Positions 5,780-51,222 of a stretch of DNA of 64,000 nucleotides are shown here, one piece after another. The DNA is taken from NCBI GenBank assembly GCA_022791255.1, contig JAAVYR010000016.1, positions 64,497 to 128,496 on the forward strand, read 5' to 3'. The stretch's first letter is position 1. Each line of letters opens with the position of its first letter. Both the position numbers and the translations under genes were made by a program. Under the pieces are notes generated by a model. That model was given only the letters and a program-made list of their open reading frames with translations, did no database searches and had not been told where the DNA came from. This DNA is from Peptococcaceae bacterium (GTDB taxonomy: Bacteria > Bacillota > Dehalobacteriia > UBA4068 > JAAVYR01).

Positions 5780-5865
5780 CCCATTTGCCTCCTCAGCTTG
5801 ATTAGTTTCATTCTATCATATCTTCTATGTCATCACAATAAGCCTTCCTGGATATTGCTCCATAT

Positions 5866-5985
5866 TACAAAAGCATTACTTACTACTACCGACAATTACC
5901 ATCCCCTCTGTCAGAAGTACTCAGTATATCTCTCGTACATCGTGGCACCATATGTCATCCTGAGGAACACCGTGACAAAGGATCT
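5866..5985. repeat. dispersed intergenic repeat, copy 1: TACTACCGACAATTAC...GTCAGAAGTACTCAGTAT...CGTGGCA module plus GTCATCCTGAGG...AAGGATC hairpin module
   Basis: Direct sequence similarity to copies at 25885-26000, 50258-50350, 50928-51185 and 23090-23135. Confidence 0.6.
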
Positions 5986-9980: not shown

Positions 9981-10232
9981 AGAGAGATCCTTTCCTTTTT
10001 ACAGCTATTCACTACAACGCAAATACTTTGGGAATGTTTCTCTTTCTTCTTTTACAAAAAGAACAAGCAAAGCCAGCCCAAAGTATTTGTGTTCTACCTA
10101 TTATAATTGATAGTACCATTTTTCCAAATTTTTAGCAAATGATAACACTTTGATAACATTGTGATTGTAGATTTTTAAATTTAATCCCGTCATAATAAAG
10201 TGAGACTATTTATAAGGAGGTAATTTTTCCCC

Positions 10233-10685
10233 GTCATCCTGAGGGGCTTTGCCCCGAAGGATCTTTAAATACTTTCTCGGGGAGCCGCCGCCTGTTTGAC
10301 GCGGGGAACGCTAACTTCTGGCGAGGCTGTTACTAGGTCAACCAGGCGGCAGTTTTGCTTCTTTTTCTAAAAGAAGTTAAAGACTTACCCAAAGGAACTT
10401 ATAGCATTTGCCCTTCTGTCAAAAGTACAATGTATATATTTAATAGTCACTTTCTACCGCTGACAGCTGGGCAAGTACGAATAATTTACTTTGGGCTCGC
10501 TTTGCCTGTTCTTTTAAGAAAAGAACCAAAATCGCAATCTGGTTGCCTTCCCCATTTACGAAAAGATCCTTCGCATTTGCTAACGCTCTGCTCAGGATGA
10601 CATAGAGAGACAGTGTCTACTTCTGATTGTCATCCTGAGGGGCATTTGCCCTGAAGGATCCTTCGCTTTCGCTTAGGATGACAAT
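10233..10685. mobile_element. non-autonomous MITE-like element, copy A
   Basis: GTCATCCTGAGG at 10233-10244 and its inverse CTCAGGATGAC at 10591-10601. A 65-nt 5' module and a 208-bp core (10341-10548) are about 90% identical to copy B at 23163-23371. An extra hairpin unit lies at 10629-10685. No intact ORF: the 81-aa ORF shares 15 aa with the copy-B ORF and then frameshifts. Confidence 0.45.
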
Positions 10686-22977: not shown

Positions 22978-23026
22978 AAAAGAGAGATGGCATTTTTATC
23001 ATCTCTCTTTTTCTATGTCATTCTGA

Positions 23027-23523
23027 GCAAAGGCGAAGGATCTTTAAATACTTTCTCGGGGACCCGCCGCCTATATATACCACTTTTATATATTTGCCTA
23101 CATTCTGCTTTTCCCAGTCCGGAAGTACTAAGCATCGCTTACCTTAAAAGTGGCAGATTATAACCAGGCGGCAGTTTTGCTTCTTTTTCAAAAAGAAGTT
23201 AAAGATTTACCCAAAGGAACTTACACCACTTGTACTTCGGTCAAAAGTAAAATATATATTATTAAAAAGTTACTATCTACTTTTGACAGTTGGGCAAGTA
23301 CGAATTATTTACCTTGGGTTCGCTTTGCCTGTTCTTTTAAGAAAAGAACCAAAATCGCAATCTGGTTGCCTTTGCCTGGCAGCCTCGTCACTACCTAGTG
23401 CTCCCCGCGGCAAACAGATTGCCTTCCCCATATACTAAAAGATCCTTCGTCACTTTGTTCCTCAGGATGACATATAGAGGCAGTGTGTACTTCTGATTGT
23501 CATCCTGAGCGAAAGCGAAGGAT
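23027..23523. mobile_element. non-autonomous MITE-like element, copy B
   Basis: GTCATTCTGAGC at 23027-23038 and CTCAGGATGAC at 23460-23470. The 208-bp core (23163-23371) is about 90% identical to copy A. A terminal hairpin unit GTCATCCTGAGCGAAAGCGAAGGATC lies at 23498-23523. The variable middle embeds a copy of the short dispersed repeat (23090-23135). Confidence 0.45.
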
Positions 23524-23567
23524 CTTAAAAAAAGCCAAAGAACAATTTTCTTTTTGTTCCTTGGCTT

Positions 23568-25762: not shown

Positions 25763-25884
25763 AAAAATAAACCTCCTCTTGCCGGCATCTCATACATACC
25801 AGCCTGCACTTATCTGATTGTGTAGATTAGCATATCACATTCCCGTAAAAATTTCCAGAACATTCTAAGATATGCCACATTCTA

Positions 25885-26000
25885 CAAAAGCATTTCATAC
25901 TACTACCGACAATTACCTATTCATCTGCCGGAAGTACCCAGTATCGCCCTCCTACAGCGTGGCACTATCCTAAGATCCTTCACATTCGTTCAGGATGACA
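25885..26000. repeat. dispersed intergenic repeat, copy 2 (hairpin module inverted)
   Basis: CATACTACTACCGACAATTACC...CTGCCGGAAGTACCCAGTAT...CGTGGCA...AAGATCCTTC...CAGGATGAC. Confidence 0.6.
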
Positions 26001-27415: not shown

Positions 27416-27850
27416 ATGGCATTATATAGTGAAAAAGTAATGGACCACTTCACCAATCCCCGCAATGTAGGCGAGTTGGAAAACGCTGACGGCGTAGGCG
27501 AAGTAGGCAACGCTAAGTGCGGCGATATTATGAAAATCTACTTAAAAATTGACGATAACATCATTACCGATGTGAAATTTAACACCTTTGGCTGTGGCAG
27601 CGCCATCGCTTCCTCTTCTATGGCTACGGAAATGATAAAAGGCAAGTCTATCGACGAAGCATTGGAACTGACCAACAAAGCAGTGGTAGAAGCATTAGAC
27701 GGCTTGCCGCCTCATAAAATCCACTGCTCCGTTCTAGCCGAAGAAGCAGTAAAAGCTGCCTTAAAAGACTACTATGACAAAAATAATATTCCTTATGATA
27801 AGGCACTTTTCCCAGACTGTGACTCCTGTGCCCATTGCGCCGACCACTAA
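27416..27850 (+). CDS. nifU: Fe-S cluster assembly scaffold (NifU/IscU N-terminal-domain type)
   Basis: Conserved GNAKCGD, FNTFGCGSAIASSS and HCSVLAEEA cysteine motifs. Confidence 0.85.
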   Translation: MALYSEKVMDHFTNPRNVGELENADGVGEVGNAKCGDIMKIYLKIDDNIITDVKFNTFGCGSAIASSSMATEMIKGKSIDEALELTNKAVVEALDGLPPHKIHCSVLAEEAVKAALKDYYDKNNIPYDKALFPDCDSCAHCADH

Positions 27851-27946
27851 AATAAGATAAAACCAAAAACTACCCCTTACCAAATCATTGCCGGTAAGAG
27901 GTAGTTTCTTTTTTACTACCCATTACCTACGCAAAGAAAAGAAGTA

Positions 27947-28042: not shown

Positions 28043-28135
28043 ATGACAGTAATCAACGGGAACAACATGAACATGTGCATGGCTATGATGATGCGGACCA
28101 AAGATTGCTGTATCATGCGATGCTTCATGCTCTAA
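28043..28135 (+). CDS. putative Met/Cys-rich leader peptide (30 aa)
   Basis: GAAAGGAAG ribosome-binding site 8 nt upstream. Product MTVINGNNMNMCMAMMMRTKDCCIMRCFML has 9 Met and 4 Cys in 30 codons. Sits between a strong promoter and a terminator/antiterminator structure. Confidence 0.45.
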   Translation: MTVINGNNMNMCMAMMMRTKDCCIMRCFML

Positions 28136-28227: not shown

Positions 28228-28289
28228 ATGCTTATTTTTTGTTAATCGTATAAATCATGCAAATCATGCAAGGAAAGAAGGTAGCTTTC

Positions 28290-33706: not shown

Positions 33707-33957
33707 TTCTCAACACTTTTTCTCATCTGCACAAGTTCCCTAGAAGTTACCCTTTAGATTATACCGGGCTACAAAAGCCCCTGTCAATAGCACTTCCTAA
33801 CAAAGCTGTCAATATTTACCGTATGCCCCGCAGCTATTCTTTTCTTAGTTAGGTTAACAAAATCAACTAAAATCTTGCTGAAAATCCATATCTTTTATTT
33901 ATTTATTTCCCCCTGAGGGATTTTGCCCCAAAGGATCCTTTTCCATTATGAGCCGTT

Positions 33958-34719
33958 TTAGATGCTTTGCTGATGCGCAGCATGACGCTGCCTTTGCCGC
34001 AACGCTTCATATAGCAGCACTGCTCCAGCATTGGATACATTGAGAGAGTTCACCTGCCCAGCCATAGGAATATGAACCAAATAGTCACAGTTCTTTAAAA
34101 GCAGTGGCGCAATGCCTTTCCCTTCGCTGCCCAGCACCAGCGCAATAGGACCAGTAAAATCACATTGCCAAAGGCCACTAGAACCAGGCCGTTCTGCTTC
34201 TGCTCCTGCTACCCATAGCCCTGCTTTTTTCAGCTTTTCCACCGCCTGTACCAGGTTTCCTACCCGAGCAATAGGCATAAAAGCAGCAGCCCCTGCCGAT
34301 ACCTTGATGACTGTTTCATTGACAGCCACAGCCCGTCGCTGGGGGATAATGATACCATGAACCCCTACACATTCTGCTGTACGAATAAGAGCTCCTAGAT
34401 TATGCGGGTCCTCTACCTCTGACAACACCAACACCAGAGGCGCTTCTCCCGCTTCTTCAGCTCGTGCCAGGATATCCTCTACCTCTACATAGGTAAAGTC
34501 GCTGACTTCCGCCGCAATGCCCTGATGGTGCTCTTTCGTCATATTATCCAGCACAGACCGGTCCACGAAAGTAAAAGGAACCTTTTTTTCTTTACAAAGT
34601 GCAGTAACTTTCGCCACAAAGGCCCGGTCCATACCTTGGGCAAGCCAGACTTTATGGATGGTCCGCCCACTTTTCATGCCTTCCAGCACTGCATTTTTCC
34701 CATAAATTTTTTCCGCCAT
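33958..34719 (-). CDS. rlmB: 23S rRNA (guanosine-2'-O)-methyltransferase RlmB (SpoU/TrmH family, YacO)
   Basis: Start at MAEKIYGKNAV 6 nt after the thyX stop. SPOUT motifs LVLGSEGKGI and NVSNAGAVLLYE. Confidence 0.8.
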   Translation of the reverse strand: MAEKIYGKNAVLEGMKSGRTIHKVWLAQGMDRAFVAKVTALCKEKKVPFTFVDRSVLDNMTKEHHQGIAAEVSDFTYVEVEDILARAEEAGEAPLVLVLSEVEDPHNLGALIRTAECVGVHGIIIPQRRAVAVNETVIKVSAGAAAFMPIARVGNLVQAVEKLKKAGLWVAGAEAERPGSSGLWQCDFTGPIALVLGSEGKGIAPLLLKNCDYLVHIPMAGQVNSLNVSNAGAVLLYEALRQRQRHAAHQQSI

Positions 34720-50192: not shown

Positions 50193-50257
50193 CCATTCGT
50201 TACTTAAAAGAAACTCACTGCTTTTTACACAAGGTCCAGATAGTGCCGGATGTTGCT

Positions 50258-50350
50258 CCATACTACGGAAGCAATACTTTCTACTATCGATAATTACTTT
50301 TTCTTCTATCAGAAGTACGCAATATTTCTCTTGCACTCTGTGACACTATA
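50258..50350. repeat. dispersed intergenic repeat, copy 3 (degenerate), lying between ilvB and ilvN
   Basis: ACTACGGAAGCAATAC...CTACTATCGATAATTAC...TATCAGAAGTACGCAATAT...TGTGACA. Confidence 0.5.
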
Positions 50351-50410
50351 AAAGACTTCTTAGCATGACAACATTTTATAAAAAATATTTTCTAAAAGGG
50401 GGTAGGTATT

Positions 50411-50917
50411 TTGCGCCATGCCATCGTTGCCCTGGTCGAGAATAAACCAGGGGTCTTAAGCAAGCTATGCGGCCTTATTGCCCGAAAAGGCTTTAACATC
50501 ATCAATCTTTCTGTAGCAGACACAGAAAGGCCCTCTGTCACCCGCATATCTATGGCAGTAGAAACTACAGAACCTACTGCTCCTGCAGAATTAGCTCAAG
50601 TAGTCCATCAACTGGAAAAGCAGCCCTATGTGCTCCAGGTGTTTAATCTCACCCAGGCGGACCCTATCGCCCGAGAAACCGCTCTCTTCAAAATCGCTGC
50701 CGCACCAGTCGTCCGTGGAGAAGTCTTCCATACCTGCGAAAACTTCCGCGCCCGCGTGCTAGAGGCCGGCCCCGACTCTATGGTAGTAGAAATCACCGGC
50801 GACCATCAAAAGATAGATGCCTTCATTTCCGCTATCGAAAAATACCACATTATCGAGAGCATCCGTACTGGTGAAGTCTTCATGACCAAAGACAATCATC
50901 CCCTACTCTCCAAATAA
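50411..50917 (+). CDS. ilvN: acetolactate synthase small (regulatory) subunit, ACT domain
   Basis: TTG start. The HAIVALVENKPGVLSKLCGLIARKGFNIINLSVADTE segment is a typical ACT domain. 168 aa. Confidence 0.85.
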   Translation: MRHAIVALVENKPGVLSKLCGLIARKGFNIINLSVADTERPSVTRISMAVETTEPTAPAELAQVVHQLEKQPYVLQVFNLTQADPIARETALFKIAAAPVVRGEVFHTCENFRARVLEAGPDSMVVEITGDHQKIDAFISAIEKYHIIESIRTGEVFMTKDNHPLLSK

Positions 50918-50927
50918 TGCCGGACTA

Positions 50928-51185
50928 TGCTCCAAATTACAAAGGCACTACTCTCTACTACCGAGCAATTACATATCCTTCTGTCAGAAGTAGCAAGTAT
51001 TTACCAGGCATATCGTGGCATTATCCGTACATCGTGGCATAATCTTGTCATCCTGAGCAAAGTGAAACGGAGCAAAGGATCTTAGATACTGCCACACACT
51101 ACAAAAGCATTGCTCTCTACTACCAGCAATCACACATCTCGCTGCCGGAAGTACTTAGTATTTCTCATGTACTTTGTGGCAATAT
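50928..51185. repeat. dispersed intergenic repeat, two tandem copies (4 and 5), the first with a hairpin module
   Basis: CTCTACTACCGAGCAATTAC...CTGTCAGAAGTAGCAAGTAT...CGTGGCA...GTCATCCTGAGCAAAG...CAAAGGATCT, then CTCTACTACCAGCAATCAC...GCCGGAAGTACTTAGTAT...TGTGGCA. Confidence 0.6.
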
Positions 51186-51188
51186 ATA

Positions 51189-51222
51189 AAAGGACCTCCG
51201 TTAAATAACGGAGGTCCTTTTT
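51189..51222 (-). terminator. rho-independent terminator of the 1057-aa SLH protein gene
   Basis: AAAAGGACCTCCGTTA-aat-AACGGAGGTCCTTTTTT. Confidence 0.55.

Follow-up and report, generated by a model that had tools for sequence, protein, structure and literature searches.

Mosaic intergenic repeats built around a tagged hairpin in a Clostridia-like bacterial lineage

Results

Repeat units in a housekeeping gene neighborhood

The stretch of DNA analyzed here comprises 64,000 nt of contig JAAVYR010000016.1 from a Peptococcaceae bacterium (in the following called the window), and its subject is a family of short repeats that are dispersed over the spacers of this stretch. Pfam scans of 48 open reading frames (ORFs) revealed a housekeeping neighborhood with radA, apgM, serS, gyrB/gyrA, panB/panE, an aminotransferase gene (dapL), nifS/nifU, a 2-oxoacid:ferredoxin oxidoreductase, sigH, rlmB, thyX, cysS, gltX, guaA, ilvB/ilvN, and genes for SLH-domain wall proteins. 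The scans confirmed the names that an initial annotation of the window had given to the genes flanking the repeats. That annotation had described a dispersed family akin to repetitive extragenic palindromes (REPs) and miniature inverted-repeat transposable elements (MITEs), which turned out to be the right general class.

A mechanical repeat search of the window found five members of a non-coding module, M, an imperfect hairpin of about 95 nt. In addition, the window holds 10 full units and one truncated unit of a second element, H, a stem-loop of 25–37 nt. The family is real, as the numbers of both elements exceed the shuffle expectation, which is about 1.4 units for H (Markov shuffling). The pattern searches that had been proposed as a check also gave counts above expectation: the 16-mer TACTACCGACAATTAC matched four times at up to three mismatches (0.28 expected), and the hairpin pattern GTCATCCTGAG matched 10 times (0.81 expected).

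The M copies are about 67–79% identical in pairwise comparisons, and all of them lie on the plus strand. M1 (5856–5950) is found in the divergent spacer between apgM, which is on the minus strand, and the tRNA-Ser promoter. M2 (25873–25967) lies between the divergent dapL and nifS genes, upstream of the two promoters, and M3 (50254–50348) lies in the ilvB-ilvN spacer within an insertion of 151 nt. M4 (50928–51023) and M5 (51090–51184) belong to a small array after ilvN, of which M5 is the last unit. A covariance model of M, run with filters off over the whole window, recovered exactly these five copies in a single orientation and with 92–106 bits (106 bits for M1). Its only borderline match (27845–27934, E=0.16) was rejected because it is an ordinary terminator hairpin.

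The occurrence of copies in both orientations, as initially claimed, therefore applies to H but not to M (5/5 in the same orientation). A proposed copy at 23090–23135 did not stand, as it is a weak partial resemblance inside a larger element, L2 (BLAST, 62.5% identity over 72 nt, E of about 0.02–0.1), on which the covariance model was silent at E≤10. A proposed fragment at 33905–33940 is indeed a truncated repeat, but the unit is a 5′-truncated H (33912–33940, plus strand, between sigH and rlmB) and not M.

The hairpin of M is maintained, with 91% of cells paired. Its covariation was not above that of shuffled controls, and therefore a selected RNA structure is not claimed for M. The two strands are unequal: the minus strand has 41 G·T pairs versus 6 in the plus strand, G outnumbers C by a factor of two, and the consensus fold energy is −20.0 kcal/mol for the minus strand versus −5.8 kcal/mol for the plus strand. 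The single-stranded form of one strand could thus matter. Inheritance from a founder copy together with strand bias is an equally good reading of this asymmetry, and several of the wobbles are common to all copies. The GC skew is negative in each 4-kb segment across 1–64000 (−0.04 to −0.18), which places the whole window on one replichore with a C-rich plus strand. Consequently, all M copies are oriented alike with respect to replication, although they are too few for a test.

Anatomy and covariation of the H hairpin

In the 5′ to 3′ direction, H starts with a (T/C)GTC tag that is left unpaired, followed by a stem of 5 bp (AT-N-CT/AG-N′-AT), two G·A pairs in tandem, an inner hairpin that varies in length, and a C-TT tail; the formula is (T/C)GTC-AT·N·CT-GA-(variable inner hairpin)-GA-AG·N′·AT-C. 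The full units on the plus strand start at 5954, 10233, 10629, 23017, 23499, and 51047, and those on the minus strand span 10565–10601, 10657–10682, 23441–23471, and 25974–25999. Two of them are joined to right ends of M copies, i.e., the unit at 5954–5984 (plus strand), with a TGTC tag and an ATCCT/AGGAT stem, to M1, and the unit at 25974–25999 (minus strand) to M2.

Conservation was quantified with 35 units from the window and from relatives of the host, which are described below. The tag is TGTC in 27 of these units and CGTC in three. Nearly all units (34/35) begin the stem with A-T at position 1 and T-A at position 2. All four Watson-Crick pairs are found at position 3, namely C-G (15), T-A (11), A-T (2), and G-C (2). 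One switch from C-G to T-A was seen directly in an orthologous unit, which has ATCCT/AGGAT in the window and ATTCT/AGAAT in contig L224 of a relative. The H hairpin is thus selected, and position 3 covaries. The two tandem G·A pairs are present in 32/35 and 27/35 units, the inner segment measures 6–17 nt in the window and reaches 21 nt in the relatives, and the tail is CTT in 21 units and CCA in one. An H-like sequence with an ATGCT/AGCAT stem was also noticed on the minus strand at 33961–33986, within the final ~15 codons of rlmB; this sequence may be due to chance or may represent an old insertion that has rewritten the C-terminus.

Composite elements assembled from H units and fillers

H units in alternating orientation bracket three different fillers, which are a 27-nt linker, the ~95-nt M, and a palindromic core of ~300 nt (L core). 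The L cores are part of two elements of ~0.5 kb, L1 and L2, which in the repeat search matched each other as well as their own reverse complements. L1 (10233–10682) is composed of H(+) at 10233–10263, the ~300-nt palindromic core, H(−) at 10565–10601, the 27-nt linker, H(+) at 10629–10660, and an overlapping H(−) at 10657–10682. L2 (23017–23524) is composed of H(+) at 23017–23042, a core with an extra insert, H(−) at 23441–23471, the 27-nt linker, and H(+) at 23499–23524. The suggested link between the repeats and the termini of the two large elements was thereby borne out, as both begin and end with H, and their outer ends read TGTCAT...ATGACA. A palindromic fragment at 10013–10096 is related to the arms of these elements. 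The L cores reached only an E of about 3 with the M covariance model. ORFs of 81 and 82 amino acids in L1 and L2 were discarded as genes because the frame differs between the two copies, and the elements are thus non-coding. Two small XRE/Cro-type helix-turn-helix (HTH) genes adjoin L2 (23568–24104), and a DUF6809 gene begins directly after L1 (10720–11016). In contigs L087 and L224 of relatives, small HTH genes likewise adjoin repeat-rich spacers.

Two arrangements of H pairs can be distinguished. In head-to-head pairs, the GTCAT ends face each other, as in the H(−)-27 nt-H(+) doublets at 10565–10660 and 23441–23524, which match each other at 94% identity. Tail-to-tail pairs overlap at GGATCC (10629–10682) or, in L1 and L2, surround the ~300-nt palindromic core. 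Between the two doublets (10591–10639 versus 23461–23509), the identity of the 27-nt linker is also 94%. In alignments, this linker corresponds to an internally deleted right arm of M, and the doublets and M are hence variants of a single unit, H(−)-X-H(+). Only decayed H units are found left of most M copies in the window, whereas an ortholog in relative L227 has a full H(−) directly left of M.

Both repeat sites at ilvN show this architecture in a degraded state. The 151-nt insertion in the ilvB-ilvN spacer (50231–50381, plus strand) contains a decayed H-like arm (50234–50253), M3, and a decayed H(−) at about 50353–50369. The array after ilvN (50909–51184, plus strand) contains a decayed H-like arm, M4, a partial duplication of 22 nt, H(+) at 51047–51081, a vestigial H(−) at 51082–51089, and M5, and it is followed by a bidirectional terminator. 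In sister strain L098, a full H(+)/H(−) pair is present between the two M copies, while the window has retained H(+) and the vestige TTAGATAC. The last codons of ilvN and its TAA stop are part of the left arm of the M4 element, CTCCAAATAATGCCGG, which matches GTCCAGATAGTGCCGG at M3 (50905–50927 versus 50234–50253). The ilvN product has 168 amino acids in the window and 166–167 in the relatives, and it seems that the repeat provides the end of ilvN. The copies lie between genes, as initially stated, but "always" is slightly too strong in view of this stop codon inside the left arm (50909–50927).

Strain comparison reveals a duplication-free empty site and fast turnover

The closest match of ilvB among 185,579 GTDB species genomes was 53% identical, and the nifS product was 81% identical to a protein from an Oscillospiraceae metagenome-assembled genome. 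These values show that the host belongs to a poorly represented Clostridia-like lineage. The window strain was recovered base for base in several metagenome assemblies, and contigs of relatives were gathered via homologs of ilvN, nifS, and apgM. The window strain is present in samples JGI 3300051405, SRR35275446, SRR29764159, and SRR29764181, and sister strains are represented by SRR36555130, ERZ14864680, ERZ14650984, ERR6844497, and SRR17182774. The repeats are also present in these contigs, and thus the family is not limited to the window. The contigs are 1–5 kb long, and several of them end (L089, L090, L093, L227) or start (L101–L103) inside or beside H units or an L1 arm. Probably, the repeats fragment metagenome assemblies of the host lineage.

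The presence/absence comparison that had been recommended yielded a clear result for the ilvB-ilvN spacer. In a sister strain (L098 and L099), ilvN is 99% identical to the window at the amino acid level and 95% at the nucleotide level, but the spacer has a length of 67 nt versus 218 nt. The whole 151-nt block is absent from both contigs, which leaves a clean empty site that reads ...TTTTTACAC directly followed by AAAATGTTTTCT. A target-site duplication was not found at this pair of empty and filled sites; at most two nucleotides (AA) are ambiguous. More distant relatives have spacers of 31–72 nt without a repeat, while L089 carries an H(−)-25 nt-H(+) doublet in the ilvB-ilvN spacer and an H(−)-M-like-H(+) unit after ilvN.

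Further block differences abutting H were found at other loci. L224 contains the orthologous M2 with its H, showing that this insertion is old, and M2 is 75% identical versus 89–90% in the flanks. The same contig has an extra H pair of ~67 nt upstream of nifS, and about 210 nt are missing from the left half of its L2 ortholog, in a gap that begins directly after the left-hand H(+). L227 contains the orthologous M1 with its H (M1 83% identical versus 97.5% in the flank) and an extra 75-nt segment with an H pair, and L229 has an H-H-H-L arrangement at another locus, downstream of ruvC. For the most part, the structural differences among the relatives abut H units.

The positional orthologs of M are 75–83% identical, compared with 89–99% in the flanks, and they are no closer to one another than to paralogs. 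This fast turnover is due either to fast decay or to replacement by other family members. M5 of L098 is nearest to M1 of the window and not to its positional partner, which suggests replacement or gene conversion among the copies. The notion of an actively or recently spreading element is thus only partly correct. The evidence for mobility is good, but the copies, at 61–82% identity to each other, are too diverged for a recent burst, and two of the insertions are older than the split from relatives with 87–97% identical flanks.

H is widespread, M is restricted to the lineage

A scan with the M pattern gave 0 matches in GTDB species genomes, JGI metagenome contigs, and IMG/VR, and M is thus restricted to the host lineage. 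BLAST searches with M1 plus H against phages and with L1 against plasmids gave no match. Literature searches with the repeat sequence and with the peptides that it would encode retrieved only unrelated primers.

The H pattern GTCAT-N-CTGAG...GAAG-N-ATC is present in at least 120 IMG/VR contigs. This raw count alone is not evidence, as we roughly estimate that a 17-base pattern with a 23-step gap could match about 100 times by chance in a database as large as this. The occurrence of H in IMG/VR is credible because, among the matches listed, the free stem position is Watson-Crick in 120 of 130 unique units (92%) and the gap length peaks at 6 nt. In the same set of listed matches, the inner segment is self-complementary far above shuffles.

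The 31-nt consensus of H also matched plasmids of Planktothrix, Calothrix, Oscillatoria, Hymenobacter, Phocaeicola, Granulicella, and Novosphingobium, which span the Cyanobacteria, Bacteroidota, Acidobacteria, and Proteobacteria. The units on these plasmids and in phage-like contigs are H nearly letter for letter, and no repeat annotation underlies any of the plasmid matches. The usual unit in both sources is TGTCAT...-linker-...ATGACA built from two H variants, typically ATTCT together with ATCCT. Direct repeats were not found around any of 49 H(+)..H(−) pairs from many sources. On a Planktothrix agardhii plasmid (NZ_LR882951.1, L230), two 75-nt H(+)/H(−) pairs (777–851 and 2373–2447) lie in frame within an annotated BREX pglX gene that is open over 1,256 codons. 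They encode VILSETKDL...SSQAQND, and three tandem 87-nt units follow the gene. In this respect, they resemble the Rickettsia palindromic elements inside genes.

Search for a partner enzyme and for an RNA function

A distal RAYT or IS200-like transposase recognizing the hairpin had been put forward as a partner, but none was found in the 64 kb. The Pfam scans of the 48 window proteins detected neither a transposase nor a recombinase. Clustering of the ORFs beside H in the 120 IMG/VR contigs yielded only phage structural genes and no recurrent candidate enzyme family. Queries with approximate IS200, IS608, and E. coli RAYT sequences gave a single weak match, which is the Y1 gene of L215 described below. 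An insertion sequence (IS) with H-like ends was not found in the window, the relatives, the plasmids, or the phages.

Two candidate genes were rejected. A RAYT-like Y1 gene (PF01797) at 1170–1712 on the minus strand of L215 is 4 kb away from the nearest H and is bracketed by long inverted repeats of its own, GGCGCAGGCTTCCAGCCTGTGGGGGTTGG; its relatives in IMG/VR are found at 2 loci. A free-standing GIY-YIG gene of 86 amino acids (YhbQ-like; L226, 1594–1854) lies beside an H-rich spacer upstream of nifS, but is near H nowhere else.

The initial annotation had also suggested that the hairpins act as transcription terminators or RNA stability elements, and this was not supported. A terminator scan of three sites, comprising M1–M5 and the adjacent H units, found no terminator-like site, and no U-tract follows H, the tail of which is CTT(T/A). 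True terminators at 51189–51222 and 27855–27915 are separate hairpins outside the repeats. Single H units in phage-like contigs had no orientation bias relative to co-directional flanking ORFs (19 versus 21), which argues for an element that acts at the DNA level. At the gathering score, Rfam identified only five tRNAs in the window, and the repeats thus do not correspond to a known RNA family or riboswitch. Permissive Rfam scans of the two repeat-richest regions gave only noise, and 14 H-rich contigs from elsewhere gave no Rfam match.

Apart from the repeats, a small ORF with a plausible ribosome-binding site was noticed at 28043–28135 (plus strand), just ahead of the oxidoreductase cluster (start at 28257). 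It encodes MTVINGNNMNMCMAMMMRTKDCCIMRCFML, with 8 Met and 4 Cys in 30 amino acids, and could be a leader peptide or the precursor of a small peptide.

Discussion

Proposed mobility via the H hairpin

The explanation that we favor, with a probability of roughly 55%, is that the repeats are lineage-specific, non-coding mosaics of the REP/BIME/NIME type (BIME, bacterial interspersed mosaic element; NIME, neisserial intergenic mosaic element), which act at the DNA level and are moved via H. Segments containing H would be inserted, deleted, and swapped as DNA. The most likely agent would be a trans-acting enzyme that recognizes the H hairpin on single-stranded DNA, possibly a Y1/HUH transposase similar to RAYTs or an IS110-type recombinase like that targeting dRS3 of Neisseria. 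Hairpin-promoted deletion and recombination between copies may add to the turnover. The repeats would settle where they do little harm, i.e., in spacers that separate divergent promoters or convergent gene ends and in a spacer within an operon. The anatomy of H, the lack of target duplications, and the analogy to known systems suggest such an enzyme and a single-stranded intermediate. The repeats would have no function for the host.

Several results weigh against this explanation. The proposed enzyme is inferred purely indirectly, since the 48 window proteins include no transposase or recombinase and the genes beside H in IMG/VR contigs point to no enzyme family. Folded as DNA, the H units reach −1.2 to −8.1 kcal/mol, and although most of them adopt the expected shape, this is thermodynamically modest. 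Only one clean empty site defines an insertion, whereas the other polymorphisms could equally be deletions. In addition, the wobble bias, the G excess, and the uniform orientation of M would also fit a strand-specific RNA.

An unlikely alternative, albeit the one that survives best, is that H is not mobile itself and that the arrays change by recombination between H sites, including those on incoming DNA, with M and L as passive spacers. It would account for the structural differences that abut H, and block exchange predicts that positional orthologs of M are no closer than paralogs. H is frequent in phage-like contigs, and the same mechanism has been proposed in the NIME model (PMC1797815). 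However, the sister strain has no H at the place where the block between ilvB and ilvN was inserted, and at least this event was thus a de novo insertion and not an exchange between H units. Furthermore, no recombinase gene was found near H, neither by the Pfam scans of the window nor among the ORFs beside H in IMG/VR contigs.

It is rather improbable that the repeats are classical MITEs, i.e., non-autonomous elements in which H would represent terminal inverted repeats and a DDE transposase from another locus of the genome would perform the cut-and-paste transposition. The TGTCAT...ATGACA outer ends of L1, L2, and the small H(+)..H(−) pairs would fit such elements, as would the presence/absence polymorphism. 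Nevertheless, target-site duplications are missing at the clean empty site and around the 49 H pairs, and the window, the relatives, the plasmids, and the phages yielded no insertion sequence with ends of this kind. Moreover, each of the "terminal repeats" is itself a hairpin with compensatory changes, which a transposase binding double-stranded DNA would not need.

Similarly improbable is a role as RNA, in which M, and perhaps H, would act as a stabilizer of 3′-ends, a processing site, an attenuator, or a small RNA from the minus strand. E. coli REPs are known to stabilize mRNA 3′-ends, M folds much better on the minus strand (both by energy and by wobble count), the 5 copies share one orientation, and M4 and M5 are situated just after the stop codon of an SLH gene on the minus strand. 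But the positions of M on the minus strand are inconsistent, because they are upstream of promoters in two divergent spacers, antisense in the ilvBN operon, and after a gene end. The three scanned sites lack terminator-like U-tracts, Rfam matches are absent, the covariation of M does not exceed that of shuffled controls, the module diverges faster than the intergenic DNA beside it, and H has no orientation bias relative to genes. The negative GC skew of the window may explain both the shared orientation and the G-rich minus strand. Lastly, chance similarity or an assembly artifact could be suspected from the modest identity between copies (61–82%), but it is practically eliminated by the shuffle controls, the covariance-model scores, and the identical sequence in independent assemblies from several samples.

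Comparison with known repeat systems

REPs have been divided into two super-families with GTAG and CGTC tags (Di Nocera et al. 2013; PMC3733652). In the CGTC type, the tag is often TGTC, with CCTC as a further variant, and the stems almost always start with A-T pairs. The units are stem-loops of 20–40 bp that are present in many copies, mostly outside genes. They form head-to-head dimers, often heterodimers, they also occur inside genes, and they have no dedicated transposase. The type includes dRS3 of Neisseria and RPE-4/RPE-6 of Rickettsia and is distributed over five phyla; the Firmicutes are not among them, and the main text contains no mention of Firmicutes or Clostridia (PMC3733652). H shares with this super-family the short extragenic stem-loop, the tag, the A-T/T-A start of the stem, the head-to-head dimers and heterodimers, the intragenic units, the wide spread, and the lack of a dedicated transposase. 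In contrast, it does not conform to the dimensions of the published families, which have 8–9-bp stems, 4–5-nt loops, and a CCA tail (PMC3733652), while H combines a 5-bp stem, tandem G·A pairs, and an inner stem that varies in length with a CTT tail. Only the H units of 25–26 nt come close.

NIMEs consist of dRS3 hairpins that flank more than 100 families of RS elements of 50–150 bp, in arrays that vary between strains (Bentley et al. 2007; PMC1797815). They had not been seen outside Neisseria as of 2007, and dRS3 is the integration site of a phage recombinase (PMC1797815). The arrays in the window (10233–10682, 23017–23524, and 50909–51184) are similarly built from hairpins that bracket families of repeated spacers in intergenic regions, here M (~95 nt), the 27-nt linker, and the L cores, and in both cases syntenic arrays vary between strains in the number and length of units and have no transposase of their own. 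In its context, dRS3 has a CGTC tag and an AT-starting stem, as does H (PMC3733652). The differences are the consensus (ATTCCCNNNNNNNNGGGAAT for dRS3, ATTCCC-N8-GGGAAT, versus a different sequence for H), the host (Neisseria versus a Clostridia-like member of the Bacillota), and the small size of the arrays described here, which contain 2–5 units. We know of no phage recombinase that targets H.

BIMEs and REPIN-RAYT systems come next in similarity. With the REPs and BIMEs of E. coli, the family shares extragenic imperfect palindromes, alternating orientation, and conserved linkers. With the REPIN-RAYT systems of Pseudomonas, it shares inverted doublets with a spacer, likely the mobile unit, and the same H doublets are carried by the relatives. 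Hairpins with conserved mismatches and the lack of target duplications are common to all of them. However, the tag of REPs and REPINs is GTAG, whereas that of H is TGTC or CGTC. REPIN-RAYT systems are defined by a cognate RAYT flanked by repeats, and the Pfam scans found none among the 48 window proteins. REPINs are passed on vertically and are specific to a species, whereas the H motif is spread across phyla. Classical MITEs resemble the family less closely, since they have terminal inverted repeats, to which the H ends are equivalent, but also target-site duplications, which are not shared.

Among the Firmicutes, the pneumococcal BOX, RUP, and SPRITE elements and bcr1 of Bacillus cereus are modular, intergenic, hairpin-forming repeats and in this respect resemble the present family; BOX, too, is composed of sub-modules in a mosaic. 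Unlike the present family, RUP and bcr1 are flanked by target duplications and have ends related to IS elements. To our knowledge, none of the four is related in sequence to the present family.

Significance

Taken together, we read the repeats as a new family in a new host lineage, but of a known kind, i.e., selfish or neutral repeats. H reaches far beyond the window and appears to be undescribed as such; it carried no annotation in any of the places where it was encountered. It is conceivable, though we regard it as doubtful at present, that H represents a distinct undescribed branch of tagged REP hairpins in at least five phyla and in phage-like contigs, which would be capable of residing in frame, would seed NIME-type arrays, and would be moved by an enzyme class that has not yet been linked to such repeats.

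The findings extend REP/NIME-type mosaics, which have hardly been described in the Bacillota, to an uncultured Clostridia-like lineage. As the repeats break assemblies, they help to explain the absence of a good reference genome for this lineage. They seem to give neighboring genes stop codons and short C-terminal tails and are possible strain markers. The combination of wide distribution, compensatory evolution, and no known partner makes H a tractable lead to the mover of CGTC-type REPs, a question left open in 2013.

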